This document shows, one piece after another, positions 7,222-64,000 of a stretch of DNA of 64,000 nt. Origin of the DNA: an uncultured Gammaproteobacteria bacterium (GTDB lineage: Bacteria; Pseudomonadota; Gammaproteobacteria; DRLM01); assembly GCA_963729605.1 (NCBI GenBank), contig CAVSNY010000007.1, positions 1,342,518-1,406,517 of the forward strand, written 5' to 3'. Position 1 is the stretch's first letter; every line of letters begins with the position of its first letter. The position numbers and the translations under genes were made by a program. The notes beneath the pieces were generated by a model that saw only the letters and a list, made by a program, of their open reading frames with translations, ran no database searches and was not told the origin of the DNA.

Positions 7222-7374
7222 TGCGGGTATCGCTCCACGATTTGCGGGAGAGAATCGGGGGAGGGGAGTAAAGCGGGGGAGCCCGATGGAAATCTTCAGT
7301 TAATTCTTCTCTCTCGCTGTGACGTTCGACATCAAGACGCGGCTGTCACTAATGCGACGCACAGAGAACACTAT

Positions 7375-7520: not shown

Positions 7521-7635
7521 AATTCTGCGGCCTGCAGGCGGTGCGCGGTGTTATGGGCCGCCTTTGAGGTCCCGCCGAATAAGCCCGCGTCGCCGGGGAG
7601 ATAACTTATTGCGGGACTCGCGCATGGACCGCGGC

Positions 7636-8418
7636 CTAGCGCGCCTCGACCAGACCGTTCAACACCCATCCCAAGCTGCCGTCTTCGGTTTGCACCTGCA
7701 ACCATTCGCCCTGGTAAGCGCGGGCGGTCACCGGTGCCGCCTTTTGCAGCACGCCGAGGACGGCGGCGTTGGCGCGCGGCTGGCGGCGCAGATTGCCGTC
7801 CACTTTCATGCGCAGGGCAATCGCGGCCTTGAAGGGTACCTCGGATGTCGCGCGTTTATCCGCGCCGGACCCGTTGCGAAGATCCGCCAGCATGTCGATG
7901 AATTGCCGGGCCTGGGTGGCGAGATCCACGCTGGCGTCGTACTCGCCTTTCGCGAAGGCGGCGGAGGCGCCGTCCAATATCCGCTGCGCCTCGCCCTGCT
8001 GCGCCGCGTCGCGTTCCGCGCCCGGCGTGGAGCGCAGCTTCGCCATGGCGACCTCCACCTGGGCGAGCAGCGACGCGGCGTCGGCCTCGGTGGCGAAACG
8101 GCGCAGTTTCACCTCGGCGCGCGCCGCCTGGCTGGTGGTTTCCTTCAACAGCTTGTCCTGTTCCTGCCGATGTGCGCGCAGATTGCTGATCTCCGCCTCC
8201 TTATCCGCCAAGAGTTGTTGCAAGCGGGCGATTTCGCGTTGCGGTTCTTCACAAGATACCGGCGAGGCGGCGGGTGCGGGGGCCACCGAGGGAATATCCG
8301 GCGCGGGTTGCCGGACGGCGCATCCGGCCAAGCTCAACGCACACAAGGCGAGCATCGCCCACCGCGTGCCATGCCGGCTGAATTTAAAATGTGACTCCGA
8401 CATCTTAATTAACGCCAC
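7636..8418 (-). CDS. Lipoprotein with coiled coil and C-terminal SH3b-like domain
   Basis: Lipobox LAGC; C-terminus NLRRQPRANAAVLGVL...GEWLQVQTEDGSLGWV. Confidence 0.75.
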   Translation of the reverse strand: MALIKMSESHFKFSRHGTRWAMLALCALSLAGCAVRQPAPDIPSVAPAPAASPVSCEEPQREIARLQQLLADKEAEISNLRAHRQEQDKLLKETTSQAARAEVKLRRFATEADAASLLAQVEVAMAKLRSTPGAERDAAQQGEAQRILDGASAAFAKGEYDASVDLATQARQFIDMLADLRNGSGADKRATSEVPFKAAIALRMKVDGNLRRQPRANAAVLGVLQKAAPVTARAYQGEWLQVQTEDGSLGWVLNGLVEAR

Positions 8419-14550: not shown

Positions 14551-17500
14551 CGCTAGCCTCCTCTCGAGCGTGCTCCGGCAGCTTCAACCGCTGACGGTCA
14601 CCGTCGTACTCGATCAGCAGGACGCCTGACACCCGCCGGTCGCTGATATCCACAAAGCAGGCGCCACCGATGAATGGTTCGAGGGTCATGACGGACTTCA
14701 GCGGCGTAGCGACCACCATTTGAAATCCGAAATTGGTAAAGATGTTCATTGCCAAAGCGGTGAACTCGTTGTCAGCCTTGTCGAATGCCTCATCAAGCAC
14801 GACGGGCGAATACATCGGCACGCCGTGGTCGTTCCCTCCCAGTTGATACCGTAGGGCTGCCGCCAAACACGTGGTGGCCAGCTTCTGCCGTTGGCCGCCT
14901 GATTTGCCAGCACCGCTGCGGTAAATCTCGACCTCGACGTCGCTTTCATCGATTTCCCGCCCGATGAACTCAACATGCTGTCGAACGTCGAGCACAGTCT
15001 CACGCCAGCGTTTCTGCTCGGGGTCCTGACTGGCGAGTCGATCAACAAGTCGCCGCAGGGCCAGAAACCGCGCCTCGGCGAACTCACGATCCTCCGTCCA
15101 CGCATGGCTAAGTGCCTGCTGGATCTCCTGTTTGAACTCCTTGACGTCGACAAGCTGCCGGTCACTGGCGTCGATGTGGAGATAGGTGCGTTGATTGGCG
15201 CTTTGGTTGAAGGGCACCTGGCCAAGACTGTCGTTGACCAGGTCCATCCGCTCTAGGATGGCTTTGCGCGCATCGTTCAGGTAGGTGGAAAGTGCCGCCA
15301 GATTCTGGTGGCTTTGGTTCTGCAGCAATTCGAAGAATCGCTGCTCATAGGCGGGCAGGCCATCAGTTTCCAGTCGAACCAGCTTGGCGAAAAAGTCTGG
15401 TGCGCTGGCGAGGCTCGTATCCATGTCGCCAGCGTCCATGGGCCACTGACGTTTGAAATCCGCGAAGCGCGCTTCTATTTCCTTCTCGCAGACGCCAATC
15501 CCACGATTGACATCTTCGATCTCCGAATTGAGTGCGCGTTCTACAGAAGTTGTCACCTTGTCGAGGTTGTCGAGCCGGACTGCATCTGACTGCTTAGCGA
15601 AGCGCTCGTTGAGGCCCGAGATCTGATGGGGCGTCAAGGGAACGATGGACGCGTCCTGCAGAAGGGATTCTAGTTTCTGTGTACTGGTCTTGATCTGGTC
15701 AAGAATCGAATCGTGCGCACGCGTTGCATGCCGAAGATGCTTGTCAGTATCATCGACGAGTTTCTTTTGCTTCTCGATCTGCTCACTGATTTGCAGCAGG
15801 GTGGTGTTGCCCTCGCGCGCTTCGCGGATCTGCCGCTCAATGGTGGAAATGCGATCCAGCAATGGGAGCAAATCTATTTCCTGCCACTGGAGATTCACCA
15901 GAGTCTGGCACTGCATGGCTCGGGTCGCACGATTCTTGTCCTGATCGGCGAGGCTGTCGATCTCTCCTCCGAGACGCGTAATCGTGGCAGCAAGCTCCTG
16001 CGCCTGGGCTTGAAAGAGCCCAAGCTTGTCGCGGTTATCGAGCCCAAGCACCCAGTTTCGTCGGTCGCCGACACTTCTACGGTCGTCTTTCTCATGCCGG
16101 GTTTTGCTGTGCTTGACCTGGCCCTCACGGGTGATGGCGCGATCAGCGCTCCTGAACGATTGAATGGAGTCGACGCACGCATAATCGAAGCGTTGCCGTA
16201 GCTCGGCCTGTAGCCAATCGGAATATGCACCCTCCTTGACGTTCAGCTTAAGGACGAGCGAATTGGCTCCGATGGGCTTGGCCTGCCAGGTCTCCGGGCG
16301 TCCGGTCCGGTAATACACCAGGCGCTGCCCAAGATGGGTGTTGTTGATGTAATTGGCCAGCGCTGAATACTGTCGTTCGTCCACCAGGAGTGAGAGTGCA
16401 AATCCGTGTAGTACGCGCTCAATGGCCCCCTGCCATTCCGCCTCGTCAGGCTTCACCTCAATGAGTTCGCCAACAAAGGGGAGAGCCGACTCCGAGATCC
16501 CGATGGCGGCGGCGATGTCTCGACGCATTTCCAGCATGTCGGCCGGAATGTTCGACGGCTGGCGCTGGAGTGCCTGCACCTCCTTCACCACTTGCGAAAA
16601 TGCCGTCTCAGCGTCTCTCTTTTGGCCTGCCAAGCGGAACTGTTCTTCGCGGCTTTCGTTGCTGCGCTGCTCCCAATTTTCGACCTCCTGCCGCGCGTTA
16701 CCCAACAGTTCAGCGAAGGCTTGAGGAGAATCGGGGAGGCTCCAGCCCAGCTTCTTGCACGCATCTTCAGCCTGGCCGCGTTTGCGCAGGCGATCCGTGC
16801 GCTGGGTCTCCAGGCTGGATTTCTCGGCCTCCCATTGCTCGATCTGATCACCGCCCGCTTCACGGTGCTGTCGCTCCAGATCGCGCAACGTTGTGGCGTG
16901 GTTACCCAGGATGCTCTGACGTCGACTAACTTCACCTTCCGAGCCGCTGGCTTGCACCTCCAGGGACTCGACATGCTGCTTGAGGAGTTCAATGCGGCGG
17001 GTTTCCTGGTAGCCATCAACGCCCAGCCGAAGCTCATCCAGACCATTGCGCTGCAGCATCAGCGAATCTCTGCGCTGATACTGCTCCCGCGCTGGCGCAA
17101 GTGTTTGAACCTGCTCGCGAGCTGTCACTACCGCCTGGTGGGCAGCATTGAGTTCGCCAAATTCGCTGACCAAGCGATCGGCCACCTCGAAGGTTTCTGG
17201 CTTGTCCAGCATGAAATCGCGCAGGAAGGTATTGAGGTCGCCGAGATTCTTGGCCGACTGGGTTTTGTGCAGCAAACGCAGCGCCATTTCGCTCTCGATA
17301 CCAAGCAGGCGGCAGAATCGTTCGCAATAGGGACGAAACTCGTCGCGGGCGAACGCTTCGGGGAAGGACTGCTTGAGCTTTCGGATATCGAAGTTGGATT
17401 GGCCGAAGTCCTCCAACTCGCGCAGGTCAAAGGCCCGCTCCAGGACAAGGTAGTAGCGTTTAACGTCGGTGGTTCCATTTGCATTGCCACGCAGCCAGAA

Positions 17501-17911
17501 CACCTGAACAAGTACCACAAACTGGCCCAATGCGTTCTGGTAGGTCAGTGCCAAGGCTGACCACGTTGTCCCCGAGCGCAAGTAACGGGTGGCGATCTCA
17601 CCCGACTCTCCATCCTTCTGTTCGGCCCATGCACCACGTACGTAGGAGACGAGGTTTCGGTCACGACCGCTGCGGTCAGTCTCGCGCGCGGCAGCGTTGA
17701 AGTCGATCCAGCGAGGGGGCACCAGCAACGCCGAAAAAGCGTCAAGAAGAGTCGATTTCCCAGCCCCTGATCGACCGACAAACAGAAAGCCTCGTTCGCT
17801 GATCGGTACGTCATGCAGGCCAGAAAAAGTGCCCCAGTTGTAAACCTGCAGGCGAGTCATTCGGAACTGTTCGCGGGCGAACAAGGAGGCGGTTTGGGGT
17901 TCCGAGATCAT
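14537..17911 (-). CDS. jetC: Wadjet JetC SMC-family ATPase
   Basis: 1124 aa; NWGTF, Walker A GRSGAGKS, long coiled coil, KSGGQRQKL, VVLDEAFDKAD. Confidence 0.93.
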   Translation of the reverse strand: MISEPQTASLFAREQFRMTRLQVYNWGTFSGLHDVPISERGFLFVGRSGAGKSTLLDAFSALLVPPRWIDFNAAARETDRSGRDRNLVSYVRGAWAEQKDGESGEIATRYLRSGTTWSALALTYQNALGQFVVLVQVFWLRGNANGTTDVKRYYLVLERAFDLRELEDFGQSNFDIRKLKQSFPEAFARDEFRPYCERFCRLLGIESEMALRLLHKTQSAKNLGDLNTFLRDFMLDKPETFEVADRLVSEFGELNAAHQAVVTAREQVQTLAPAREQYQRRDSLMLQRNGLDELRLGVDGYQETRRIELLKQHVESLEVQASGSEGEVSRRQSILGNHATTLRDLERQHREAGGDQIEQWEAEKSSLETQRTDRLRKRGQAEDACKKLGWSLPDSPQAFAELLGNARQEVENWEQRSNESREEQFRLAGQKRDAETAFSQVVKEVQALQRQPSNIPADMLEMRRDIAAAIGISESALPFVGELIEVKPDEAEWQGAIERVLHGFALSLLVDERQYSALANYINNTHLGQRLVYYRTGRPETWQAKPIGANSLVLKLNVKEGAYSDWLQAELRQRFDYACVDSIQSFRSADRAITREGQVKHSKTRHEKDDRRSVGDRRNWVLGLDNRDKLGLFQAQAQELAATITRLGGEIDSLADQDKNRATRAMQCQTLVNLQWQEIDLLPLLDRISTIERQIREAREGNTTLLQISEQIEKQKKLVDDTDKHLRHATRAHDSILDQIKTSTQKLESLLQDASIVPLTPHQISGLNERFAKQSDAVRLDNLDKVTTSVERALNSEIEDVNRGIGVCEKEIEARFADFKRQWPMDAGDMDTSLASAPDFFAKLVRLETDGLPAYEQRFFELLQNQSHQNLAALSTYLNDARKAILERMDLVNDSLGQVPFNQSANQRTYLHIDASDRQLVDVKEFKQEIQQALSHAWTEDREFAEARFLALRRLVDRLASQDPEQKRWRETVLDVRQHVEFIGREIDESDVEVEIYRSGAGKSGGQRQKLATTCLAAALRYQLGGNDHGVPMYSPVVLDEAFDKADNEFTALAMNIFTNFGFQMVVATPLKSVMTLEPFIGGACFVDISDRRVSGVLLIEYDGDRQRLKLPEHAREEASVEAS

Positions 17912-18615
17912 TGGTCGGCCTCCTCATCGGGTTCAGTCTGAGCCAGTTGCGCTGGCGTCTCTCCGGCAGCCATGCGCTGATACAAGTGGGTCAGAGCTTG
18001 TATTTCCTCTGCTGAGAAGAGGAGCTTCAACGTGGGTGAAATCTCGAAGCGATCCTCACTCGAGCGAATTTTCTGAAGGATGCTGTGCTTCTTGATCTTC
18101 TCGATGGATGCATGAACCCGTTTCGCGAATCCCGCGCGGTCGTTGTTGGATGCTCGCTCATAGAGGGTAAGAAATTCCATCATCTCGTCCGTCGATACCA
18201 CGGCACGATCGCCCTGCGAGTCCGCCTGGGTCAATCGCTGGCGAAGGTGGAGCAGCAGAATGGAGTCAATGAAGGTCAGCTGCGCGCGACGCAGCAGGAG
18301 TGGCACTTCGAGGTCGCCGGTATCTGCCTGGCGGGTGAAGGCAACTTGTACGTCCCGGTCGATGACCAGTTCGAGGAACAGTTCGACAAGGCGCCGACGT
18401 ATCACCGCTTCGTCTCGCACTAATATCGGCCAGAGTTTTGGATGTCGACGTCCGTCGAGCGAAGGTCCCGCAAGTAGCTGCACGAGGGCGCGCCGGGTAT
18501 CCAGCGCCAACTCGCCGCTGTCACCCATGAAAAGGGTGTTGGCAGATGCGTGCGCAGCATCTGGCGCTTGTTCTTTGGCGGGCATTGCCGCTTCGTCGTT
18601 CTCAGACCAGTTCAT
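17908..18615 (-). CDS. jetB: Wadjet JetB (DUF4194)
   Basis: ATG 18615 overlaps the jetA end; LTFIDSILLLHLRQ and RFEISPTLKLLF motifs. Confidence 0.88.
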   Translation of the reverse strand: MNWSENDEAAMPAKEQAPDAAHASANTLFMGDSGELALDTRRALVQLLAGPSLDGRRHPKLWPILVRDEAVIRRRLVELFLELVIDRDVQVAFTRQADTGDLEVPLLLRRAQLTFIDSILLLHLRQRLTQADSQGDRAVVSTDEMMEFLTLYERASNNDRAGFAKRVHASIEKIKKHSILQKIRSSEDRFEISPTLKLLFSAEEIQALTHLYQRMAAGETPAQLAQTEPDEEADQ

Positions 18616-20062
18616 TTGCCCGCTCCCGCAAAAAGAAAATCTTTGGAATTCGGGCGCTGCGACGCTGGTCGTCGCCTCCAACCCAGCCAACGGTTTCGCT
18701 ATGGTCGGCCTTGAAACCATGCCGACTGCCCAATGCAAGCAGGCCGACGACGCTGCCCAAACCCTGTGCAGCGGGGAACTGCTCCAGCACGTCAGCAATG
18801 GATGCCTGGGACCGTTGCTCCAGGACAGCCAGCACGTTGGCCTTCAATGTTCGGAAGTCGATCTCGGATTGGGCGACCAATTCGCTGACAGACTCCAGGT
18901 CGATTGGTGGGGCGTCACCTTCCGCCATTTGGCCGGGCAAAGCTTGTAGGGAGGGGTCGTACAGCGCCCATTGAGACAAGGAGCGCAAACGGCTGCTCGT
19001 GAGCTCAAGCGTGTACTGGAGGGTTTCTGTGGCCCTGACTTTGTCCTTCAGGGTGAGTGCTGCTCGCTGAGCGTCTTTCAGAAGGTGATTGAGTCGGCGT
19101 TGCTCGAGGTATTCACGACTCTGGACGAAATGCTTCAGGCTGCGGGCAAACGTCTGGAGCACTTCATGGACCATGCCGCCCTGCTCAAGAAGGGTTCGTG
19201 TCAGCCGAAGAAGGAATCGGCGCTCCTTGGCTTCAAGCTGACCCACAAACTCCCGCGACATGACGCTATCAAGCGCCTGATCAAGTGTGGCGGCCTGCTG
19301 TGGGTCCGTTAGCAATCGCCAGAAAGCAGAGAAAGTCCTTCCCGCGTCGCTTTCTGAAATCAGGTCGATTCCGGCAAACAGCGAATCCAGTACATCACCC
19401 CGATTGCCATCGTTGTCCATGATGCGTTCACGGAGATCTCGATTCAGCTGGTCGAACTGATCGCGGACGCGTCGGAAGTCGCCTGCAAGATCGTCGGCCA
19501 GCGTGATGATCTCCCTCGTGCGCTCCAGTGCCGTTGCCTGAGCCAGCACGCGCATTTGCCCCTTATGGATAGCGTCTATCTCCTTATCGATGCGGGCTTG
19601 CTCGGCCATGAGCCGGTCAATGCGGCGGAATTTGTCGGTATCGGTGTCCTCTGCAAGCCGGGCCAGCGCCTCGATAACGAGTGTCAGGCGGCTCTCAGTC
19701 GCGGCTGAGTGGGGCTGCGCCAGGCCAGAGACAAAACGAATGGCCTCCACGGCAGCCGTCGACAGTTCGTATTCCTCCTCTGAAGCCCCTGCCGGGAAAC
19801 GGCGCTCCAGATAACCATCGGCAAGCCAGCTGGCCACGTAAGCCTGCGCTGTTTGGGGGAAGTCTTCGCCTTGAGCGCGCAGCTCTTCTAAATCCCTCCC
19901 GATCCGTTCGTGAAGAATGGAGGCAGGAAGACTTCGCTCGCTCTCGTAAAGATGGGCTTGAAGCAGTCCAATGACGGTAGGCCCATTGTTCGACGCAAGC
20001 AGACGCCATAGGGGCTGCGCCCGTATGCGTCGGTAGGTCGTGATGGCTTTGTCTGCTTTCAC
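18602..20062 (-). CDS. jetA: Wadjet JetA (DUF3375)
   Basis: WRLLAS, ATESRL, SDAGRTFSAFWRLL; first gene of the operon. Confidence 0.9.
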   Translation of the reverse strand: MKADKAITTYRRIRAQPLWRLLASNNGPTVIGLLQAHLYESERSLPASILHERIGRDLEELRAQGEDFPQTAQAYVASWLADGYLERRFPAGASEEEYELSTAAVEAIRFVSGLAQPHSAATESRLTLVIEALARLAEDTDTDKFRRIDRLMAEQARIDKEIDAIHKGQMRVLAQATALERTREIITLADDLAGDFRRVRDQFDQLNRDLRERIMDNDGNRGDVLDSLFAGIDLISESDAGRTFSAFWRLLTDPQQAATLDQALDSVMSREFVGQLEAKERRFLLRLTRTLLEQGGMVHEVLQTFARSLKHFVQSREYLEQRRLNHLLKDAQRAALTLKDKVRATETLQYTLELTSSRLRSLSQWALYDPSLQALPGQMAEGDAPPIDLESVSELVAQSEIDFRTLKANVLAVLEQRSQASIADVLEQFPAAQGLGSVVGLLALGSRHGFKADHSETVGWVGGDDQRRSARIPKIFFLRERANELV

Positions 20063-35042: not shown

Positions 35043-36047
35043 TCACTGATTGATTGTCGTTTCCAGCGCGCGCAGGCGATCGACGATGGCATCGAAGGCG
35101 GGAGGCTCGTCGATGAACATACCGGCACCGATCATGCGCTGGAAGTCATCGCGCAGCGTGGCCAGTGCGGCATCTTCCGGAATGAGTCTGAGCTGCCCGG
35201 CCAAGCATGCGTCGTAGTTGGCGTAGCTCGCGTTGTAGAAGACCTTCTTGTGCTTGACGACATCGGCGAGCAAAGCGCGATCGGCCACAGCGGCTTGCCC
35301 ATGGGCAAGATCGGCCAGCATGGCCAGATCGTACCAGTGGCGTGACAGGCGTTCGGCGCCTGTGCGGAACTCGTCGCGCTGACACTCGACGTGCATCAGC
35401 GTCGCCTTTTCCCAGAAGGTACGTGCCGGGGACAGCACACTGACCGTCGACCGAGGAAAATCGAGTGCAGCGACATGCTCCGCGATATCGGGCCGTACCT
35501 CATGCTCTTCGTTCGGCTCGGTGATGTTTCGGCCGCCAAACTCGATCAGGACGCTGCTGCCAACGTAGTTCCCCGGCGATTCCAGAGCCGTCGCGTAGTG
35601 CACCCGCAACTTCTCGCCATCATCGCTAACTTCAAGCTGGAATGCGTTGGTATCAAACTCGGCGGCCAGCGTCCTTTGGAAGTGCGGTAACACGACACCG
35701 TGGGCATGCTCGCGCACGAACGACTTGAGATCCTCGCTGAATTTCTTCAGCCGATTGCGCGAGACGCCTTCGGCAAACGGATCGAAGGAACCGTCCAAGC
35801 CACGATAGTCGAGCGTGATGTCCACGTCCTCGGAGAAGCGAGCAATGGCGCCGAACACCTTGGAGAGTGATGTGCCGCCCTTGAAGGCCATTGGCAGTCG
35901 GTCGGGCATGGTGAACAGGGTCTGCAGCACCCAGCAGACCCAGACATCCTTTTCCAGTACGACGGGCGAGCGCGCAAGCTGCGGAGCCAGTGCCCGATAG
36001 ATTTGGGACTGCTCTTGAGCTTTCAGGTGCAGGAAGGACTCAGGCAT
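35043..36047 (-). CDS. AbiEii-family nucleotidyltransferase toxin (type IV TA)
   Basis: EKDVW, FKGGTSLSK, RFSEDVD, RTFWEK, SRHWYD. Confidence 0.9.
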   Translation of the reverse strand: MPESFLHLKAQEQSQIYRALAPQLARSPVVLEKDVWVCWVLQTLFTMPDRLPMAFKGGTSLSKVFGAIARFSEDVDITLDYRGLDGSFDPFAEGVSRNRLKKFSEDLKSFVREHAHGVVLPHFQRTLAAEFDTNAFQLEVSDDGEKLRVHYATALESPGNYVGSSVLIEFGGRNITEPNEEHEVRPDIAEHVAALDFPRSTVSVLSPARTFWEKATLMHVECQRDEFRTGAERLSRHWYDLAMLADLAHGQAAVADRALLADVVKHKKVFYNASYANYDACLAGQLRLIPEDAALATLRDDFQRMIGAGMFIDEPPAFDAIVDRLRALETTINQ

Positions 36048-36660
36048 GAACGGCAGTCCGCTCGCTCCGGAAGATGGCGTCGCTCATCCACGCGGGCATT
36101 GAGCTGGTGGCTGATTTCAGCACCTCGAATTCGCTCGATCCCAGCTTGCGCCGAATCTTCTCGACGAGAGCCGGCGTTACTTCCGTCTTGCCGAGGTACC
36201 ACATCGCCGCAAGCGCGAGTCCGGCGGGTCGACCCGCCAGGGCCAACTTGCGTTGGCAGACGTGTTGCAGACGGATCTCCATCTTGCCCACGCGGATGCG
36301 CTTCGACGGGCCGGATGTCACGAATACAGGCTGGGTCGGGACCTGCGTGGTCAGTTCGAGCCGACGCGCCGCTTCGGCACCGTGAACCTGGACGACGGCA
36401 CCCGTGATCTTGGCGATGGTCTCGGCCACCTTAAGCGGCTCGGGCATCACCTTGCCGACGAAACGGCTGACCTCTGGACGCACAAAGATGCCGCGCGTCA
36501 CGCGCTCGATCGACCCTGCTTTGACGAGGCGGGAGAGGGTCTGATCGACGGACGCACGCGTGCCGGACTCCAGGAATGCCGTCGGGGTGAAAGGCTCCCC
36601 GATCGGCATCGCCTCGATGCGCTGGCGAATCAGCTCGGCAGTCTTGGTCGTCGTGTTCAT
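36040..36660 (-). CDS. DUF6088/AbiEi-like antitoxin
   Basis: wHTH VDQTLSRLVKAG.IERVTRGIF; LELTTQVP; overlaps the toxin start. Confidence 0.85.
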   Translation of the reverse strand: MNTTTKTAELIRQRIEAMPIGEPFTPTAFLESGTRASVDQTLSRLVKAGSIERVTRGIFVRPEVSRFVGKVMPEPLKVAETIAKITGAVVQVHGAEAARRLELTTQVPTQPVFVTSGPSKRIRVGKMEIRLQHVCQRKLALAGRPAGLALAAMWYLGKTEVTPALVEKIRRKLGSSEFEVLKSATSSMPAWMSDAIFRSERTAVHA

Positions 36661-36972
36661 GTATGAAAATATATGCGAGTTTCTGACAAACTGCAAGTGC
36701 GATGACTCGCGGGGGAGATGGCTCGTGTTCCCTCCGGTAGCCAATGCGGTAATCCAACCGTTTGATTGGTCAGAGCGTAACTATTTGATCTGTATTGGGA
36801 TGACTTGTGGCCTTTGCGGACTTCGGCCAGTTTCAGGGAGCGAGGTCAGAGCGAGGAATGGCCAGGAGAGAGTGGAATGTGGCCCGGAACCTGTCGTGCG
36901 GCCGACGGCCGAAGTCCGCAGGCTTCCGCTGGAACCCCCGCGAACACGCGGGAACCGGCGCGAGCAGGCAAG

Positions 36973-49533: not shown

Positions 49534-51783
49534 ATGGCTAAAAAAACCAAATCCAAACTCACCGTCGAAACCCTCACGCACGACGGCGCCACGCGCAAGA
49601 ACATCCCAACGGCGGAGCTGCAATCCGTGATGTCGATGCATGACTTAGGGAAAAAATCAGCTTCGTTTCAGCGCTGTTTAGATCGCAATCGCGACCTCGA
49701 CCCGCAGCTGGTCTGGCGCGGCAAGGACGAGCAGGACTGGTCCGACCTCGTTGTCCACGCGCCGCCGCTCTATATTCAGGAGAAGGTCCACCCCAAGGTG
49801 CTGATCGACGACTTGCGCCGCCATTGCACTCCCGCAAGCGAGAGGGGCGGGGTGAGGGCGCCGGGGGAGCAGACCAGATCGACCTCTTCGCCGACTTCAA
49901 CGGCCTGCCCGACGACGACGCCAAGACCGAGTTCTACCAGCACGACGCCCATTGGGCCAACCGCATGATCCTCGGCGACAGCTGCAAGTCATGGCCAGCC
50001 TCGCCGAGCGCGAAGGGCTGCGCGGCCAGGTGCAGTGCATCTACTTCGATCCGCCCTACGGCATCAAATTCAACAGCAACTTCCAGTGGTCCACCACCAG
50101 CCGCGATGTGAAGGACGGCAACACCGACCACATCACCCGCGAGCCGGAGCAGGTGAAAGCGTTCCGGGATACCTGGCGCGATGGAATTCACTCCTACCTC
50201 ACCTATTTGCGTGATCGATTGACTGTGGCGCGGGATTTGTTGACAGAGTCGGGATCAATCTTTGTGCAGATCAGTGATGAAAACGTGCACCGGGTCAGGG
50301 CAGTGATGGACGAGGTGTTTGGAGAGCCCAATTTTGTAAACACGATCGTTTTCAAAAAGAAGAGTGCGACCTACTCAACCGAAACAGTATTCGATTACCT
50401 AATTTGGTATTGCCGAAACAGAGAGCAGATTAAGGTCCGTGACCTTTACGACGCGCGTTCCGCGCCAGAGGAAGAAACGAAGTTCAATACAATTGTCACG
50501 CCCGACCTCGTTTTTCATAACGTATCGAAGCTTTCCGATATAGGGGTTGAGGAATTGCTTGGGCACGGAGGAAAGTGGGCGCGGGTGAATTACCCCATCG
50601 TAAGCCAACATCCTAGTGATACCCGCAGCGTTGATTTTGTGTTTCGTGGGAAGAGAAAAGTGTGCGGCGCTAATAAGCAGTGGCGATTTGGCCCGGATGA
50701 CGGTATGCGCAAGCTGGAAAAAGCGGACCGTCTGTTTGATGGCGGAGGAGCCTCATTGGGCGGCGTGGTCTTTTGGAACGACTGGAATCAAGTTGCCCAA
50801 TCCAATATCTGGGCAGACATGCATGGTGAGAAATTTCCAACCTATGTTGTCCAAACAACCACTGTGGCAATTCAACGCTGCCTCCTTATGACCACCGACC
50901 CCGGTGACCTCGTCCTCGACCCCACCTGCGGCTCCGGCACCACCGCCTACGTCGCCGAGCAATGGGGCCGCCGCTGGATCACTATTGACACCTCCCGTGT
51001 CGCTCTTGCTTTGGCCCGCGCCCGCATCATGGGCGCGCGTTATCCCTACTACCTGCTCGCCGACAGCCGCGAAGGCCAGATCAAGGAAGCCGAAGTCACC
51101 CGCACCGTGCCGTCCAGCCAGCCCACGCGCGGCAACATCCGCCAGGGCTTCGTCTACGAGCGCGTGCCGCACATCACTCTTAAATCCATCGCCAATAACA
51201 CCGAGATCGACGTCATCTGGGACAAGTGGCAGCAGACGTTGGAACCGTTGCGCGCACAACTCAACGAAATCCTATGTAGGGTGGGCTCCGCCCACCAAGG
51301 TGCGCGAAGCGCACCCTACGAAGAATGGGAAATCCCGCGCGACACCGATCCCAAATGGCCGGATGCCGCCAAGAAATTGCACGCCGATTGGTGGCAGGCC
51401 CGCATCGCTCGCCAAAAGGAAATCGACGCCTCCATCGCCGCCAAGGCCGAGCACGAATACCTCTACGACAAGCCCTACGAAGATAAGAAGAAGGTCCGTG
51501 TCGCCGGCCCGTTCACCGTCGAGAGCCTGTCACCGCACCGTGTGCTCGGCGTGGACGAGAACGATGAACTGATCGACAGCATTGGCGAACCGAAAAGCGG
51601 CTATGGCGAGGAACGCGATTTCGTCCAGATGATTCTGGAAAATCTCAAGACCGCCGGGGTGCAGCAGGCCCACAAGGAAGACAAGATCAACTTCACCTCG
51701 CTCACGCCTTGGCCCGGCGAGTTGGTCTGCGCCGAAGGCCGCTACATCGAAAGCGGCACGGAAACCGGCGCCGAGAAACGCGC
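49534..51783 (+). pseudogene. Mod-type DNA methyltransferase, frameshifted and truncated by IS3
   Basis: DPQLVWRGK, YFDPPYGI, LDPTCGSGTT; reading frame runs into the IS at 51784. Confidence 0.85.
51276..51319. repeat. GTAG-family REP doublet inside the MTase reading frame
   Basis: GTAGGGTGGGCTCCGCCCACCAAGGTGCGCGAAGCGCACCCTAC. Confidence 0.75.
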
Positions 51784-53101
51784 TGAACCGCCCCGTGTTT
51801 TGCGGAGGCTGTTTGGTTTAAGTCATGCTGCAATCGCAGCATGACGGCGGTATTGCCTGTAGTAGTTTGCCTCAGCTTCTGCTGGAGGGATATACCCCAG
51901 AGGCTCTAATAGCCGGTGGTGGTTAAACCACGAGACCCATTCCAGGGTCGCCAGCTCCACGGATTCCCGGGTTTTCCAGGGTCCCCGACGATGGATCAGC
52001 TCGGCCTTGTACAGCCCGTTGATCGTCTCGGCCAATGCGTTATCGTAGCTGTCGCCCTTGCTGCCGACCGAAGGCTCGATGCCGGCCTCGGCCAGTCGCT
52101 CGGTGTAGCGGATCGAGACGTATTGCGAGCCCCTGTCGCTGTGATGGATCAGGGCATCCTCTGGTTCGGGCTGCCGGGCGTACAGAGCTTGCTCCAGTGC
52201 GTCGAGCACGAAGTCCGTGGCCATGGTGCGGCTGACCCGCCAACCGACGATGCGCCGGGCGAAGACATCAATGACGAAGGCCACATACAGCCAGCCCTGC
52301 CAGGTCGACACATACGTGAAATCCGACACCCAGAGCTGGTTGGGCCTGTCCGCCTTGAACTGTCGATTGACCCGGTCCAGCGGGCGTGGCGCCGAGTGGT
52401 CAGGCACGGTGGTGCGAACCGCCTTGCCACGGCGCACACCCTGCAGGCCCAGGCGCTTCATCAGACGCTCGACCGTACAACGGGCCACCTCGATGCCCTC
52501 GCGGTTCAGCTGCCGCCAGACTTTGTCGGCGCCGTACACCTGCAGGTGGGTGTGCCAGACACGCTGAATATGCGACATCAATACCTCATCGCGCTTGGCC
52601 CGGGCGCTGCGCAGATCCGGATCGCGCCGCCGGGCCGCATGGCGCCGGTAGGCCGATGGGGCAACCTGCAACACCTTGCAGATCGGCTCGACCCCATAAG
52701 CATCCCGGTGCTGGTCGATGTAGGTATTTACGACTTCAGTTTGCGGTCGAGCTCCGCCTGTGCGAAAAAAGCGCTGGCGGTACGCAGTATCTCATTGGCG
52801 CGCCGCAACTCCTTGTTCTCGCGCTCCAGCTCCTTGATGCGCTGTGTCTCGGACGTGGTCGTGCCAGGACGCGCTCCGGCATCGGCCTCCGTACGCTTAA
52901 CCCACTCCAGCAGCGTCCCGGGTACACAGCCAATCTTCGGGGCGATCGACTCCACGGCCATCCACAACGACGGGTATTCCCCGCGATGCTCCTGCACCAT
53001 TCGAACCGCACGTTCACGGACTTCAGGTGAAAACTTGTTCGACTTTTTCATGGCTCCATTCTCTCAAATGTTGGAGCCTCCTCAAAACCAGGGGCGGTTC
53101 A
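51784..53101 (-). mobile_element. IS3-family element, copy 2, no TSD
   Basis: Same length and ORFs as copy 1 (one difference seen at 51838); flanks CGC and ATA. Confidence 0.95.
51823..53051 (-). CDS. IS3 transposase OrfA/OrfB, copy 2
   Basis: Protein sequences identical to copy 1 in the ORF track. Confidence 0.93.
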
Positions 53102-55838: not shown

Positions 55839-57926
55839 TGGACTTCCGCATCGCCGACACCTTCACCGATAGCCTTGCCAAACTTACCGGCGAAGAACAG
55901 AAGGCTGTCAAGACGACGGCCTTCGATCTGCAAATGAATCCGGTTAATCCCGGTATGAGCTTCCATAAGCTCGATCAGGCCAGGGATAAGAACTTTTGGT
56001 CGGTGCGGGTGAGCAGCGATATCCGGCTCATCGTGCACAAGACGGCGGGGAGTCTGCTGCTGTGTTATGTCGATCATCACGACAAGGCCTATCAGTGGGC
56101 GGAGCGGCGCAAGCTGGAAGTGCATCCCAAAACCGGCGCGGCTCAATTGGTCGAGATACGCGAGCGGGTCGAGGAGATCGCCGTCCCGAAATATGTCGCG
56201 GTCGCGAAGGCGGCGCCGGCCAAGGCCGTTGCTGTTCGCTCATCTGTCCGATGACGTGTTGCTGAGCTACGGTGTGCCCGCCGAGTGGCTGGATGATGTA
56301 CGCCGCGCGGACGAAGACAGCATTCTGGAGCTGGCCGGGCATTTGCCGGGCGAGGCGGCCGAGGCGCTGTTGGATGTAGCCACAGGCGTGGCTCCGCGAA
56401 TTACTCAGCCTGTGGGCACGGGCATTGATCCGTTCGCACATCCTGATGCGCAGCGCCGCTTCCGGGTGATGAATGATGTGGAAGAGCTAGCGCTCGCGCT
56501 CGATTACCCTTGGGAGAAATGGACTGTCTTCCTCCATCCCGCGCAGCGGCAGTTCGTCGAGCGGGACTACACGGGACCGGCGCGGGTTTCGGGATCGGCG
56601 GGCACGGGCAAGACCATCGTCGCCTTGCATCGGGCGGTGTTTCTCGCGCGATCCCATCCTGAGGCCCGCGTGTTGCTCACCACTTTTTCGGACACGCTGG
56701 CCAACGCCTTGCGCACGAAGCTGAAGCGGCTCATCAGCAATTCGCCCAGCCTGGCTGAACGTTTGGAAGTTCATTCCATGAATGCGATTGGCCGGCGTCT
56801 CTACCAATCGAACATCGGTAAGATCGATCTCGCTTCGCGAGATGTAATGCGTGAAGTTATCAAAGAGGCTGTAAGCCGAGTTAGTGGTCATACATTCAGC
56901 CCGCAATTCTTGCTCTCTGAATGGGAAGAGGTGGTTGATGCCTGGCAGTTGGATAGTTGGGAGGCCTATCGCGATGTCAGACGGTTGGGCCGAAAGACAC
57001 GCCTGCCGGAGCCGCAGCGCGCCGCGCTTTGGTCCATCTTTGAGTCAGTGCGCGCTGCGCTAACTGCGCGCGGACTGATGACACCCGCCGCCATGTTCAG
57101 CCAACTCGCGGCGCAGTTGTCAGACCGGAAGCATCCGCCCTTCGATTTTGCCGTTATCGACGAAGCACAGGATGTTACTGTCGCCCAGTTGCGTTTTCTC
57201 GCCGCGCTGGGCGGCGATCGGGTCAATAGTTTGTTTTTCGCCGGCGATTTGGGCCAACGGATTTTCCAACAGCCGTTCTCATGGAAGGCACTGGGTGTCG
57301 ATATTCGCGGACGCTCGCGCACGCTGCATATCAATTACCGGACCTCGCATCAGATCCGAATGCAGGCCGATCGTTTGCTGGGACCGGAAGTGTCCGATGT
57401 GGATGGCAATACGGAAGAACGGCGGGGCACTGTGTCGGTCTTCAACGGGCCGCCACCGGTGATACGTGTTTCGGAGAATGTTGAAGAAGAAAACAAGGCG
57501 GTGGCTGCCTGGTTGGCGGATCGGTGCGAAGAGGGCGTGGCGCCCCACGAAATTGGCGTGTTCGTCCGTTCTGCTGCGCAACTGAAGCGGGCTCGTGCGG
57601 CCGTCGAGAAGGCCGGTGTGCGGTACAAGGTGCTCGACGAGCATGTCGAAACGACCAACGGCTATCTCTCGATCAGCACCATGCACCTCGCGAAGGGTCT
57701 AGAGTTCCGCGCCGTTGTGGTGATGGCCTGCGATGATGAAGTGATACCACTTCAGGAGCGGATCGAAACCGTGGCCGACGATGCGGATTTGGAAGAGGTG
57801 TACAACACCGAGCGCCACCTGCTTTATGTGGCGTGTACCCGGGCACGGGACCATCTGTTGGTATCAGGCGTTAACCCTGCCTCAGAGTTCCTTGAAGATA
57901 TACAGCTGAGCCGCCCTGGATTTTGA
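55838..57926 (+). CDS. UvrD/REP-family helicase with RelE/ParE-like N-terminus, frameshift near 56225
   Basis: GSAGTGKT, IDEAQD, NYRT, TMHLAKGLEF, LYVACTRAR. Confidence 0.85.
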
Positions 57927-58094
57927 ATCGAGCAATTTCCTGCGATTCAAGAAACCTAATAGTATCGGGAAGATCGACAAGAAGAAGCAGTTGGAGTCGA
58001 CGCCAAAACTGCAAGTGACATTGGGGTAATCTATGACGTTCGATATTGAACAACCGTCGTTATTTCAATGGAAGTGCGGGGGTAGGAATCGCTG

Positions 58095-59399
58095 ATGTCG
58101 TTTGATCCGAGCCGTCTCATTGCCGCGCTCGCGCGTGACCAGATCACTCTGGATTTGAAAACGCTCGACCTGTGTTTCCTTGCAGGGCTTTACCTGCGGG
58201 CCGATCGGGCGTCGCTTGCATCTTTCGAAGAGGACGTGCTTATCGACATGTTCGAGCAGATATGCGACGTGGTCGACCCGAGCGCGGAGCGACCGCGCAA
58301 GCGGGCGACGCACACCATCCAACGGCTCCGGGACCAACGCATGCTAGCCCGGGTGGACGGGGCGGGCATCGTCCGGTCCGGCGAGTACACGCTGACGCGA
58401 CTGGCCGCCGCAGTCGTCGAGTATTTCCTCGCGGACGAAGCACTCACACGCGAGAGCTTGACCCTGCTAACGGGCACGCTGCGGGCTCAGCTCGCCGAGA
58501 TCCTTGGGGCAGCCAAGCGCGCTGACACCGAGGTGGCTTGGCGGGAGCGTGTCGTGGCTCCGCTGCGGGTAACCGTTGGCGATCTTGTTAGCGGCATCGA
58601 GCGCCGGCAGCGCGGGCTCGATTCTCAGCAGGAAGAGGTGCAAGCGGAGATCTCCAAACTTTTGCAGGTCGATTGGTTCGGCGCGGTCGAACGATGCCAG
58701 TCTTTGCTCGACACGACCACCGATACACTGCGAGAACTCAACGAGGTCCTTCTTCGCGATACTCATCACTTCGTCGCACTGCTGCAAGAGATTCAGGTCT
58801 TAGCTTCTGACGCGGGACAGGCAGAGTCCGAAGGGGCCGTGCAACGCGTCATCGAGCATGTCGACCGCATCGCCGCCTGGGGCGGCGCAAGGCAGCGAGC
58901 GTGGTCGGACTACTATCAGTACGTTCATCGTTATCTTCGGGATGTCGTGCGCCTCGACCCGGACCGAGCCTTGAGTCAGCGGCTACGCGACCAGGTCGCG
59001 AGCTGGCCATCGACACAGTTCCGTTTGGTAGTGGCTGCTGAGCGGTCGATCCAACTGCTCCGTCCTCTCGAGTCGAGGGTCGAGCGGCCGGTTGTAACCA
59101 GACCACGCACGGATCGGGAGGCATCACCCGATCTTGTCGATCCTGAAGATACTGGCATGGATATCGAGACTCTCGTCGAAGGAGCCCTAGCCGCGGGCGC
59201 TCGATCGCTGGCCGAGGTTACAGCGTGGGTATTGCCCCAATTCCCTGCTCATCTGCACTACGCCGTCACAGGCCGTGTGGCCGACGTGCTCGCTCGCATC
59301 ACCCAAACGCGGAGCGCTTACGAACGCCCGTGGCGAACCGTTGTGGCAAACCTGGAACTGGAGGATTGGGACCTGCCGAGAAAGGGGGAGCTGCGGTGA
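58095..59399 (+). CDS. mukF: MukF-like kleisin
   Basis: 434 aa, collinear with MukF as recalled: W.E.VVAPL..V, Q..V...I..LL..DW..A...C..LL..T..TLREL, DRI..WG, QRLR. Confidence 0.85.
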   Translation: MSFDPSRLIAALARDQITLDLKTLDLCFLAGLYLRADRASLASFEEDVLIDMFEQICDVVDPSAERPRKRATHTIQRLRDQRMLARVDGAGIVRSGEYTLTRLAAAVVEYFLADEALTRESLTLLTGTLRAQLAEILGAAKRADTEVAWRERVVAPLRVTVGDLVSGIERRQRGLDSQQEEVQAEISKLLQVDWFGAVERCQSLLDTTTDTLRELNEVLLRDTHHFVALLQEIQVLASDAGQAESEGAVQRVIEHVDRIAAWGGARQRAWSDYYQYVHRYLRDVVRLDPDRALSQRLRDQVASWPSTQFRLVVAAERSIQLLRPLESRVERPVVTRPRTDREASPDLVDPEDTGMDIETLVEGALAAGARSLAEVTAWVLPQFPAHLHYAVTGRVADVLARITQTRSAYERPWRTVVANLELEDWDLPRKGELR

Positions 59400-60088
59400 C
59401 AAGCTCCGGCTTTCAGTCCCTCCAAGAAGCCATTACCGATGAGCACTTCCCCGAGGTGGACCTCGCACTACGTCGCGGGCGACACGTCGGACGAGATGAC
59501 GGTACTGCCTACGACTACCTCGTCGATGCCCTCGATCATCTCGAGCCCTTCTACCGGCGATTCGGCTGCGAGCTGGTACAACGGGCCGACGGGTACTTTT
59601 ACCTGCTCCCCTCAGGGGACCGCCTCGGGCGGCGCCAACTATCCACTGGCGAGATGCTCGTCGGGCAGACGCTGGCATTGATGTACCTGGATCCCGCCAC
59701 CCTGCAGCATGGCGGCACCGTCCAGCGCGAAGCGCTTCTGCACCGACTTTCGGGTCTGTTGGGGGCCGAGACGCTTGTCCGCACCCTCAATCCACGGCGT
59801 AAGAAGTTCGACGAACGGATTGCGGCGGAGACCGTCCGTACCAAGGTCGCAGAGGCCCTTCGACGACTCGCGGACCTGGGGTTCATCGATATGGTAGACG
59901 ACGCGATGCTTCGCCTACGCCCCGCGTTGATGCGATTTGCTGAACCGGTCCGTGACCCGAGCAACCAGCAAGCCGCATTGGAGCGGCTGGTTAAGAGCGG
60001 TGAGATTGTCCTTGGCGATGCTGAAGAGGACGCGAACGAAGATGGTAATGGAACCGAGGCGGACGACGAGGAGGAGGTGGACAGATGA
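59396..60088 (+). CDS. mukE: MukE-like KITE subunit
   Basis: GTGA overlap; FP.VD.ALR.GRHVG, LE.FY, G.FYL, M.VG..L..MYL.P. Confidence 0.88.
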   Translation: MTSSGFQSLQEAITDEHFPEVDLALRRGRHVGRDDGTAYDYLVDALDHLEPFYRRFGCELVQRADGYFYLLPSGDRLGRRQLSTGEMLVGQTLALMYLDPATLQHGGTVQREALLHRLSGLLGAETLVRTLNPRRKKFDERIAAETVRTKVAEALRRLADLGFIDMVDDAMLRLRPALMRFAEPVRDPSNQQAALERLVKSGEIVLGDAEEDANEDGNGTEADDEEEVDR

Positions 60089-60682
60089 GCCGTACGCATG
60101 CTCAGGCACTTGCGCTCGTCAACTGGAAGGGCGTCTTCTATGAGCGATATCTCATCGACCGGCACGTGACTGCCCTCGAAGGGGCCAATGGCGCTGGCAA
60201 GACAACGGTGATGATCGCGGCCTATGTTCGTGCTTCTGCCGGACATGTCACGGCTGCGTTTCACGAATCTCGGAGAAACCGGTGCGACCGGCGGGGACAA
60301 AGGCATCTGGGGACGCCTCGGAGAAACTGGCCGCCCCGCCTATTCCGCCATCGACTTCGCCCTCGCACTCGATCATCGGCTCATTGCGGGCGTGCATCTG
60401 GAGAGGAAGGGCGAACCATCTGTCGAGCCCACGCCTTTCATCATCTCGGGTCTTGACGCAGATGTTCGCCTGCAAGACGTGCTCTTGCTATCTCAAGGTG
60501 ACCACGACGTGGTTCCCGAACTGAATGAGCTCCGCGAGAACGCCGCGCGCCTCGGTGGACGGATGCAGGTCTTCGGCACCGCGCGTGATTACTTCGCTGC
60601 TCTTTTCGATCATGGTGTCACGCCGCTGCGTCTGGCGACGGACGAAGAGCGCAACAAGCTCAATGAGATGCTGCGTACCAGT
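60085..60682 (+). CDS. mukB: MukB N-terminal head fragment (1-nt frameshift near 60227, truncated at the junction)
   Basis: LVNWKG, VTALEGANGAGKTT, LLPDMSRLRFTN..ETGATGGDKGIWGRL. Confidence 0.85.
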
Positions 60683-61214
60683 TCTCGGTGACCGGCTCGT
60701 CGGCCGTGGTGGTGCCCCGACGAGTCCCGACGCCATCACCGGGCTGCGGCTCGACGAGCTGACGGCGCTGGGTCAGACCGGCGGCTCGATGTCCCTGGCT
60801 CTCCGCGACGGCGTCGATACCCGGACCGCCGCTGCCGGCCGCATTCCGCCTCACCGACGACGGCGTCGTCGTCCCGCGTGACACCCGCCGTCGGCGAAGG
60901 CGGGCCCGGGCGCAGGCGGCGGCCGAGGCACGGGGCCCGGTGCACCTCGGCACGGACGTTGCCCCGCCCGGGCGACGTGCTCGTCGTGCGCACGCTCGAT
61001 CCCGGCTGGCGGCGCTACTGCCGGGCCTCGGCGGACTCGTCGCCGAGACGGGCAGCGTGCTGTCGCACCTGGCGATCCTCGCCCGCGAGTACGGGGTGCC
61101 ACGTCGTCGGCCTGCCCGGCGCGACGGAGCGCTTCGCCGCCGGCACGTGGGTGCGTCGTCGACGGCGCCACCGGCGAGGTGTCCGCCGTGGCCGACGCGG
61201 GCGGTGCGGCATGA
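60683..61214 (+). CDS. C-terminal part of a PEP-utilising enzyme (swivel His domain), frameshifted
   Basis: GDVLVVRTLDP, LVAETGSVLSHLAILAREYGVP, DGATGEV. Confidence 0.7.
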
Positions 61215-62064
61215 GCACCGCCCGCCGGCGGGCTGCCGCGTCGGTCGTGATGGCCGCCGCCGGCTGCGACGTCTTCGTCTACCTGTACCGCTGGGAGTGG
61301 AACCGGGCCATCGTCGCCGGGCGTCATCTTCCTCGCCGCCGAGGTCGCCCTCCTCGGCTGGCCCTCATCCCCGACCGCGACCTCAGCGACCCTCGACGGG
61401 ACCGCTCGACCGCCCCGCGGCGGACCACGACGAGCGCGTGCTGCGCCGGTCCGGGACCACGCCCCGGAGCCGGCGCACCCTTCGCCTGGCTCGGGGGCAA
61501 GCAGATCGAACGTGTTTGTACCGGTGCTGCTCGGCGCCGGCGTCGTGCTCTCGGGGCTGGCCTGGCTGTTCGACCGCGTGGCCCGGCTACAGCCGTCCCT
61601 TCGATGGAGGCGGCCGGCCCGCCGGCGCGGCACACCGCAGCCGCCCGGCGGCGTCCTCGGGGCGAGCCGATCGACCCGTTCCGGCCGCGATGACGCGGCG
61701 CCGTCGCCGTGGCCGTCGCGGCGGCGCTGGCCTCACTCGTCGGCGAGCTGGGTGACCTGACCCAGAGCCGCCGGACGCGCCCGCCATGACGCCGCCACGT
61801 GAGATCGTCGTCGACGTCGACCAAGACCGCTTCGCCCCCGGCCGACGCGGGGGCGACCGCCGGGAGCGGTGTGCTCGGCCAGACGAGCTCCCGCGCGAGC
61901 GACGACGGAGCCTTGGCGCCGGCCGCCGGCGGCCGCTACCGGGTGGCGCTCCGACCGGCGGTCGGCGAGCACGAGCGGCGCAAGCTCGTCGGCTGCCTCG
62001 AGGACCTCACGGTCGACCGCGTGTCGGCGAGGCGACCTTCCGGACTCGGTCCGCGGCCGGCTGA
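61211..62064 (+). CDS. Two hypothetical membrane-associated genes, frameshifted
   Basis: Hydrophobic pieces VFVYLYRWEWNRAI and VFVPVLLGAGVVLSGLAW; boundaries approximate. Confidence 0.35.
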
Positions 62065-62074
62065 CGCGGCCCGA

Positions 62075-62882
<808 letters not shown>

Positions 62883-62886
<4 letters not shown>

Positions 62887-63208
62887 CGATGCCCCCCACC
62901 TCGGCGGTGACCGGACGTGCCGTCGACCACCCCGCCTCGTACACCGGCACCGGCTGCGTGGCCGGCGAGCGTGACCGGTTCACCGGTGTCAGGCTGAAGG
63001 TGCTGCCGTGCTTCCGGCACTCGATCTCCCGCTCGTCGCACCACACCTCGCCCTCCGACAGCGACACGTCGGCGTGGCTGCACGTGTCGCCGATGGCGTA
63101 CACGTCGTCGCCGATGCGCACCAGGGCGACCGGACGCCGCCGACTCGACACGGCGAGCGGTGCCGGGTGGTCGAGCTCGTCGATCGCGAACGACGCGCTG
63201 TCGGCCAT
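62883..63208 (-). CDS. Rieske-type ferredoxin, frameshifted
   Basis: CSH...IECRKHGSTF. Confidence 0.8.
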
Positions 63209-63225
63209 CCCGCCCGCCCACCCCG

Positions 63226-64000
63226 TCAGCGTGCGGGCGAGGTCGAGCTTGTCGCCACCGCGCGGCGCAGATCGGCGGCAAAGGGCCGACCGGCAACTGG
63301 TCGAGCACCTCGTCGAAGAAGCCGAGCACGACGAGCCGCTCGGCGATCTCCGGCGGGATGCCCCGGCTCTCGAGGTAGAACCGCTGCTCGGGGTCGATCG
63401 GGCCGACCGTCGAGGCGTGGCTGCACTTCACGTCGTTGGTCTCGATCTCCAGGTTCGGCACGCTCTCCGCCCACGCCCCCTCGCTGAGCGTCAGGTTGCG
63501 GTTGGTCTGGAACGCCACCGAGCCCTTGGCCTGCGGCGCATCTTGATCAGTCCGGTGTAGACGCTGCGCGCGTGGTCCTGCACCGCGCCCTTGAACAGCA
63601 GGTCGCTGGTGGTGTTCGGGGCGGCGTGGTCCTGCATCGTGCGGAAGTCGTGCATCTGGTTGCCGTCGGCGAAGTACAGGGCGACCTGGCGGGTGGTGCC
63701 ACCTGGCCGACGACCTGTGCGTCGGTGCGCACCGGGCGTAGTCGCCGCCGAGGGCGACGGTGGCCAGCTGTGGTCGAGTCGCGCCCGCCGATGGCCCGCT
63801 GGTGGGCGATCTGCCACGCCGCGTTGTCGAGCTTGTTGACGCCGAGGTAGCGGACACGGGCGGCCTGACCGGCGCGCACGTAGAGGCCGGGGACGACGAG
63901 CACGGGTCGCCCTCGGCCGAGAGGAAGCGCTCGACGACGGTGACCTCGCTGTCGGCGCCTGCCTCGATGACGAGGCGGGGGAACGCCGCGATGCCGTCGC
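63226..64000 (-). CDS. sufD: SufD-family Fe-S assembly protein, partial and frameshifted
   Basis: SDLLFKGAV, QTNRNL.LS, SVPNLEIETNDVKCSHASTVG, FYLESRGI. Confidence 0.85.

Follow-up and report, generated by a model that had tools for sequence, protein, structure and literature searches.

Wadjet/MksBEFG systems, known as type I JetABCD from E. coli GF4-3 and P. aeruginosa and as MksBEFG from C. glutamicum, encode a kleisin, a KITE protein, an SMC protein and a Toprim nuclease in this order. The housekeeping MukBEF of Enterobacterales, Vibrionales, Pasteurellales and their kin is encoded by overlapping genes in the order mukF-mukE-mukB. A further complex, MksBEF of P. aeruginosa, was reportedly described by Petrushenko and colleagues in 2011 as an accessory Muk-like SMC complex found alongside SMC-ScpAB. 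Here we analyzed an operon of three Muk-like genes on the plus strand of a 64,000-nucleotide stretch of DNA (the window) from an uncultured Gammaproteobacteria bacterium. The window is the final 64 kb of contig C7 (CAVSNY010000007.1) in assembly GCA_963729605.1, which comprises 3.48 Mb in 7 contigs with 61% GC and is 94.5% complete. Our analysis makes it quite likely, by analogy with the systems above, that this operon is a Muk-type member of the Wadjet group serving in plasmid restriction, truncated here by assembly, and not a chromosome condensin. The window most likely holds the first 2.6 kb, that is the promoter-proximal part, of a four-gene Muk-type operon.

In the parts of Burmann et al. 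2025 (PMC7617805) available to us, MukBEF is treated as a member of the Wadjet group without MksG, and nuclease-free members of the group are known. The accessible part of a preprint by Liu et al. (2022) proposes that MukBEF descends from a JetABCD-like immunity system. Our literature search found no description of a type IV Wadjet and nothing joining MukBEF, MksG and Myxococcota or myxobacteria, and the literature on MukB together with DUF2220 led to the known Wadjet/MksG papers.

Gene content and sequence affinity of the operon

The first gene (58095-59399) encodes a complete MukF-like kleisin of 434 amino acids. The second (59396-60088) encodes a complete MukE-like KITE protein of 230 amino acids and starts at a GTG that overlaps the mukF stop codon (GTGA). 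The third, a mukB-like SMC gene (60085-60681), starts at an ATG at position 60085 that overlaps the mukE stop codon (ATGA). A 4-nt stop/start overlap is therefore found at each of the two joints, and the overlapping mukF-mukE-mukB order proposed in a preliminary description of the window, made from the sequence letters, is confirmed at these coordinates. Two points go beyond that description: mukB is present only as a 597-nt 5' fragment (199 codons, including the Walker A region), and it carries a 1-nt insertion at 60227.

The Pfam search matched the mukF product to MukF_M (86 bits) and KicB (38 bits), with MukF_C reaching 21.8 bits, under its cut-off of 27. The mukE product matched MukE (124.6 bits) and MksE (125.4 bits), and the mukB fragment matched MukB_N in two frames with 70 and 174 bits (profile positions 2-48 and 49-203). 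At the equivalog level of NCBIfam, only MukB passed as a match to housekeeping MukBEF: the full-length MukB of the related locus L011 scored 1074 bits, above the cut-off of 699, and the window MukF (374.7 bits, cut-off 407) and MukE (119.5 bits, cut-off 250) remained under theirs. The condensinMksE model gave the window MukE 28.7 bits against a cut-off of 400, and in the same scan neither the MukF-like nor the MukB-like protein had a match to any Mks-specific model. By BLASTP the proteins were 28% identical to MukF (E 3e-35), 31% to MukE (E 2e-32) and 26% to MukB (E 8e-60) of E. coli K-12, and had no significant match to the JetA and JetC encoded elsewhere in the window by a type I Wadjet.

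Searches of PDB chain sequences gave the same picture. The MukF-like protein retrieved MukF chains only (best E 1.3e-34) and MukB retrieved MukB chains only, with residues 7-1467 of the L011 protein aligned (E 5.5e-101). The MukE-like protein had six matches at E up to 1, of which the five significant ones were MukE chains and the sixth, a phage portal at E 0.96, was non-significant. No JetA/B/C or Mks chain was retrieved by any of the three proteins. The JetA and JetB models of PADLOC-DB v2.0.0 all missed the Muk-type kleisin and KITE proteins at E up to 1, which sets the operon apart from Wadjet types I-III as modelled there. The JetC1 model scored 38.8 bits on the Muk-type SMC protein, over the P-loop only, and JetD1 gave partial matches of 22.5-29.6 bits to the nuclease described below. 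As a positive control, the type I Wadjet of the window scored 683 (JetA1), 1508 (JetC1) and 461 bits (JetD1). Because the Pfam, PADLOC, BLASTP and PDB-chain searches agree, the assignment of the three genes as Muk-like rather than Jet-like, already made in the preliminary description, is correct. In Pfam, NCBIfam and PDB alike, the sequence searches matched no family but housekeeping MukBEF. It is collinear with the Muk-type proteins over the full length of MukB, hinge included; the identity is only 26-31%.

The gene after mukB and the end of the contig

A scan of one genome per species yielded 62 related loci. Of these, 47 include the 3' end of the approximately 1474-amino-acid mukB gene and 15 stop earlier. 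In 44 of the 47 the next gene encodes a protein of about 323-340 amino acids, and its match begins less than or up to 20 nt from the end of the mukB match in 39 cases and 46-257 nt after it in the other five. The nearest relatives of the window operon, with MukF identities of 84-92%, have this fourth gene wherever the locus extends far enough. All ten copies tested passed the Pfam cut-off for JetD_C (32-41 bits against 22). In an alignment of 38 sequences of the fourth protein, the Toprim glutamate (E197, in an ENLG motif) and D241 and D243 of a DxD motif are invariant. An AlphaFold model built from the 38-copy alignment, with a mean predicted local distance difference test score (pLDDT) of 83, had as its best structural matches C. 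glutamicum MksG (8b7f, E 5e-8) and P. aeruginosa JetD (7til, E 2e-6), over both domains; topoisomerase VI-A and Spo11 were also among the matches. A profile search of PDB sequences retrieved MksG at E 0.0011. The fold and the conserved E and DxD are features in common with the Wadjet/MksBEFG nucleases. ATPase motifs were sought in the MukB of 36 fourth-gene operons, 35 of them loci of the scan and one the Burkholderia plasmid locus L075: Walker A is present in 36, the signature motif in 35 and Walker B in 36 of the 36 sequences.

The preliminary description had suggested that a nuclease gene might follow mukB, and these relatives bear it out. Because 44 of the 47 loci carry a JetD/MksG-like gene after mukB, the full system is, judged by sequence, MukF-MukE-MukB plus a predicted nuclease of JetD/MksG type, in other words the Wadjet/MksBEFG architecture on a Muk-type core. 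The fourth gene distinguishes these operons from housekeeping MukBEF and likewise from P. aeruginosa MksBEF, from which the low condensinMksE score also separates them. One member has already been listed: in Data S1 of Burmann et al. 2025 (PMC7617805), the row for operon 169 of Sorangium cellulosum So ce56, labelled 'FEBG', has the coordinates of our locus L034 and belongs to the same clade. The MukF of L034 is 72% identical to that of the window and its fourth gene passes JetD_C. It appears there as a row of a supplementary table and in an alignment, and the main-text passages of that paper available to us do not single this operon out. The designation as a candidate new system is consequently not supported or goes too far, and our verdict from the sequences is that the operon represents a Muk-type form within the Wadjet group rather than a system of a new kind. 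Elsewhere in the family, L043 (locus positions 6248-7703, from a Myxococcales metagenome-assembled genome, MAG) has only short N- and C-terminal remnants of mukB, of about 480 nt, ahead of a JetD-like gene that is intact, apparently the result of a deletion within the SMC gene.

In the window itself the operon is interrupted twice. In alignment with four relatives, a single extra base on the plus strand at 60227 shifts the frame and splits mukB in two, and similarity to all related loci stops at 60681. Up to that point the mukB fragment has 96% amino acid identity to residues 1-199 of the 1473-amino-acid L011 MukB, and both mukF and mukE are complete, sharing 90% identity with their counterparts in full operons. 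What follows (60682-64000) is a foreign tail outside the system, with a PEP-utilizer fragment and sufC-like, Rieske and sufD-like frames, several of them broken (PEP-utilizers and Rieske in Pfam). Its GC content of 74% to the contig end compares with a genome mean of 61%, and it is a tetranucleotide outlier, only 5 of 350 genome windows deviating from that mean as much or more. A tblastn search of the 7 contigs with the L011 MukB and fourth protein detected the window fragment only, and neither the remainder of mukB nor the nuclease gene.

We compared positions 58000-64000 with contigs of four public runs (X1-X4, from three studies). The base at 60227 is missing from the contigs of all four. 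In X1, X3 and X4 the operon contig continues past 60678 with identical letters that match the mukB of the relatives; in X2 a 1017-nt contig matches up to 60681 and its other 819 letters are unmatched to the window. The X1 contig, of 3603 nt, also covers the upstream flank 58000-58080, which is specific to the context of this genome and absent from the 62 related loci. Among the pieces listed from the four runs, no contig bridges the 60681/60682 junction. The best run contained 0.38 of the words sampled from 59700-61700, and the sparse coverage of the tail by the runs is no evidence either way. Because the public contigs lack the extra base and three of them continue into normal mukB, we favour with good confidence the reading of both the frameshift and the junction as assembly artefacts at a chimeric contig end, so that the junction named in the preliminary description is most likely not biological. 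Since both defects are likely assembly errors, the source organism probably has the whole operon.

The same evidence bears on the possibility that the operon is a genuine dead remnant, broken by the frameshift and by a rearrangement or deletion at 60681, with nothing functional left. Both lesions are present in the deposited assembly, the rest of mukB is in none of its 7 contigs, and decay does occur in this family, as L043 illustrates. Such a history would have to accommodate a tail that is a compositional outlier with broken frames of its own and sits exactly at a contig end, intact mukF and mukE genes, and four runs without the extra base, of which three continue into normal mukB, one of these together with the upstream flank of the window. 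We therefore consider a dead remnant unlikely, and neither decay of the gene nor a junction of biological origin should be read from the truncation and frameshift seen in the window.

Distribution, phylogeny and genomic setting

Of 7999 database candidates that were scored, 1660 are relatives of the MukF-like protein at E <=1e-3. Identity to it is 72-90% for the best 120, and the sources named among these 120, which are few, are Chromatiaceae, Myxococcales, Krumholzibacteria, Kofleriaceae, Byssovorax and Myxococcota. Not one of 60 relatives of the host (3 of the same genus, 8 of the same family and 49 of the same class) has a MukF-like gene; 53 of the 61 genomes searched, the host included, are at least 90% complete. 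In a sample of 400 other genomes of the phylum, 26 contained MukB_N. These 26 belong to four families (9/9, 9/13, 1/1 and 7/7), and the near-universal presence of MukB_N inside those families is a housekeeping pattern.

A MukB tree was computed under LG+G4 with a short search from 33 of 48 rows, 15 rows from fourth-gene operons having been dropped. The JetC of the window, on a very long branch, was the sole outgroup and compositional heterogeneity was flagged. Nine housekeeping sequences formed one clade (SH-like approximate likelihood ratio test, SH-aLRT, 100), and 21 sequences from fourth-gene operons formed, together with two nuclease-less ones, a second clade separate from housekeeping MukB (SH-aLRT 98). 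The second clade mixes Gammaproteobacteria, Myxococcota, Binatia, Spirochaetota, Planctomycetota, Actinomycetota, Alphaproteobacteria and the Burkholderia plasmid, with the proviso that phylum labels derived from MAGs can be wrong. The Muk-type clade includes isolates of Sorangium (5 genomes) and Pseudomonas lini as well as Thioalkalivibrio sp. HK1 and B. pyrrocinia. Because none of the 60 relatives carries the operon and the tree scrambles the phyla, the sequences support an accessory operon that has spread horizontally, as its description as mobile had implied, and in this it differs from the vertically inherited housekeeping MukBEF. A patchy, accessory occurrence in defence islands is a trait shared with Wadjet/MksBEFG.

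The tree gives no support to the polarity contained in the term Muk-derived, used in the preliminary description: the Muk-type sequences stand in their own clade beside housekeeping MukB, and Liu et al., in the part of the preprint accessible to us, derive MukBEF from a JetABCD-like ancestor. With a nuclease in both the outgroup and the sister clade, the topology fits their view. It falls short of proof because Wadjet types II and III and nuclease-free MksBEF are outside the sample. It is conceivable, although we would not yet count on it, that the Muk-type clade is a fourth Wadjet lineage and the living nuclease-bearing sister of housekeeping MukBEF. In a FastTree of MukF (76 of the 150 listed 50%-identity representatives and 17 locus rows, L072 being left out for a stop codon), housekeeping MukF formed one tight clade among many deep lineages. 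The proteins P0179-P0266 are such deep lineages of the MukF family, 24-36% identical to the query and outside both the housekeeping and the Muk-type clades.

One copy of the operon (L075) lies on an 880-kb plasmid of Burkholderia pyrrocinia beside CBASS-like genes (SAVED, nucleotidyltransferase, ThiF and JAB) and an IS21 element. Its genes are labelled 'hypothetical protein', 'MukE', 'MukB' and 'DUF2220 domain-containing protein' in RefSeq. The 16 other matches in plasmid records were rejected as housekeeping mukF, 27-28% identical, on chromosome-like or mislabelled records. Among the assembled runs, a 28,571-nt contig of X3 matches 58081-60678 of the window with 32 differences over about 2.6 kb and has a different upstream context; its loose end starts exactly at 58081, where the block common to all relatives has its left edge. 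Because the match starts at the shared block edge in another upstream context, it suggests the recent transfer of a discrete cassette.

The flanks of 20 loci (118 open reading frames) vary by locus, with type I restriction-modification, AbiE, Schlafen/AlbA_2, ABC-3C, HNH, KAP NTPase, ParE, PIN and transposase domains frequent among them. In four close relatives an AbiEi/AbiEii pair is directly upstream and AbiEii ends exactly at the mukF start (L011, 9126-10001; L021, 5567-6442; L028, 9126-10001; L069, 9126-10001). This adjacency is absent from the window, whose own AbiE pair is at 35043-36744.

Pfam and PADLOC show that defence genes precede mukF in the window, namely SoFic, a second type III methylase, an AAA protein matching PDC-S01 and, with its end 168 nt from the mukF start, a UvrD/GajB-like helicase. 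This agrees with the restriction-modification, Fic, AAA and helicase genes noted beforehand. The helicase occupies the place that cmoM has in E. coli, so that the smtA/cmoM gene of the enterobacterial locus is indeed missing upstream. The neighbourhood is a genuine defence island, with the Muk-type genes at its end, and also holds AbiD, a type III restriction-modification pair, AbiEi/AbiEii and a PD-Lambda-5_B-like methylase fragment. About 38 kb upstream of the Muk-type operon, on the minus strand at 13387-20062, there is a complete type I Wadjet, jetA-jetB-jetC-jetD, with the Pfam domains DUF3375, DUF4194, AAA_29 plus SbcC_Walker_B, and DUF3322 plus JetD_C; the coexistence with a canonical Wadjet was thus correctly recognized. 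Contig C3 encodes the SMC protein (a 1180-codon frame), ScpA and ScpB of the host. Because SMC-ScpAB is present, the Muk-type genes are not the sole condensin of the host.

The 168-nt gap before mukF contains the ATTGAA...TTCAAT inverted repeat that had been pointed out at 58045-58069, with perfect 6-nt arms. The repeat is real and we give it no weight: it lies outside the block common to all 62 related loci, whose start falls at 58081-58104. We rejected it as an operator because it is not conserved in the relatives and has no promoter or terminator consensus close by, no promoter-like or terminator-like site having been found in 57700-58300. It probably arose by chance. The same core recurs in an 8-nt perfect inverted repeat at 57923-57950 (TTGAATCG/CGATTCAA), which overlaps the helicase stop codon, and in a second ATTGAA...TTCAAT pair at 1052-1079. 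Further upstream, a type III methylase is represented by two consecutive open reading frames (49534-49968 and 49952-51844) that match one PADLOC model at positions 60-123 and 170-760, a split that is probably a single-base assembly error or a frameshift. Contig C7 also has a region at about 1310518-1326518, lying 16-32 kb before the window, where GC is 35-51% against 61% for the genome; it is presumably another foreign island.

Competing explanations and significance

By analogy with characterized Wadjet/MksBEFG systems, the MukBEF-like core would be loaded on DNA and use ATP to extrude loops. A small circular molecule would become fully extruded and then be cut by the Toprim nuclease recruited to the core, so that plasmids would be restricted and the chromosome spared.

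Several observations weigh against the assignment to a plasmid-restriction system. In three of the 47 loci (L044, L064 and L072) MukFEB stands without a detectable nuclease gene, and mukB is followed by a LysR regulator in L044 and by an NAD-binding protein in L064. These may be nuclease-free derivatives, and because of them some lineages may work as plain condensins. In the genome studied here neither the nuclease gene nor the rest of mukB was observed, and no second JetD_C gene was detected in the 94.5% complete assembly besides the type I jetD, so that the truncation may be real. Between the public contigs and the window there are 24-32 differences, and the contigs therefore come from close relatives, maybe from other cells. 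The survey of flanking genes was made without a control set. A scan of 72,556 plasmid records gave 17 matches and a single true relative; 17 pattern matches in IMG/VR viral contigs yielded none that was confirmed, and 50,697 phage records contained no relative of the operon. Finally, the defence role of the clade is putative, being predicted from homology.

A Muk-type SMC-nuclease system might also have a target other than plasmids, such as phage DNA or another mobile element, or a Toprim partner that is topoisomerase-like and not a restriction nuclease. The SMC core is far in sequence from the tested JetABC, and its arms have MukB length, the protein measuring about 1474 amino acids (1473 in L011) against 1124 for the JetC of the window. 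The nuclease, of about 330 amino acids against 387 for the window JetD, is about 60 residues shorter, shares 25% identity with the window JetD1 over 71 residues, and has topoisomerase VI-A and Spo11 among its structural matches. Its best structural matches are nevertheless MksG and JetD, and the operon has the MksFEBG order. A non-plasmid target or a topoisomerase-like partner is in our estimate improbable.

Very improbable, finally, is the reading of the operon as an additional condensin for the chromosome, nuclease-free like MksBEF or MukBEF and placed in a defence island by accident: the Muk-like sequence of all three proteins, the missing nuclease gene in this assembly, the three nuclease-less loci and the nuclease-free group members known from the accessible parts of PMC7617805 would suit it, but the predicted nuclease with intact Toprim residues follows mukB in 44 of 47 loci and in the nearest relatives wherever the locus extends far enough, the condensinMksE score is far below its cut-off, the operon is missing from all 60 host relatives searched, and the host already has SMC-ScpAB.

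We thus retain a Muk-type Wadjet-group operon, predicted to restrict plasmids, as the best explanation. Standard defence annotation misses this clade despite its spread over many phyla at 70-90% protein identity. With the annotation name 'chromosome partition protein MukF/E/B' and no match to the PADLOC kleisin and KITE models, a widespread probable plasmid-restriction system is read as a condensin. A nuclease-bearing Muk-type operon beside housekeeping MukB makes the idea of Liu et al. (2022), as presented in the accessible part of the preprint, testable, and lets Muk-type and housekeeping MukBEF be compared for their structures, for how they load and unload and for the effect of nuclease removal. 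Should the clade prove to be a fourth Wadjet lineage, the length of the MukB arms and the geometry of the Muk-type kleisin could let it measure or select DNA unlike types I-III, and it would be the closest extant model of the immunity system that was domesticated into the E. coli condensin by loss of JetD.

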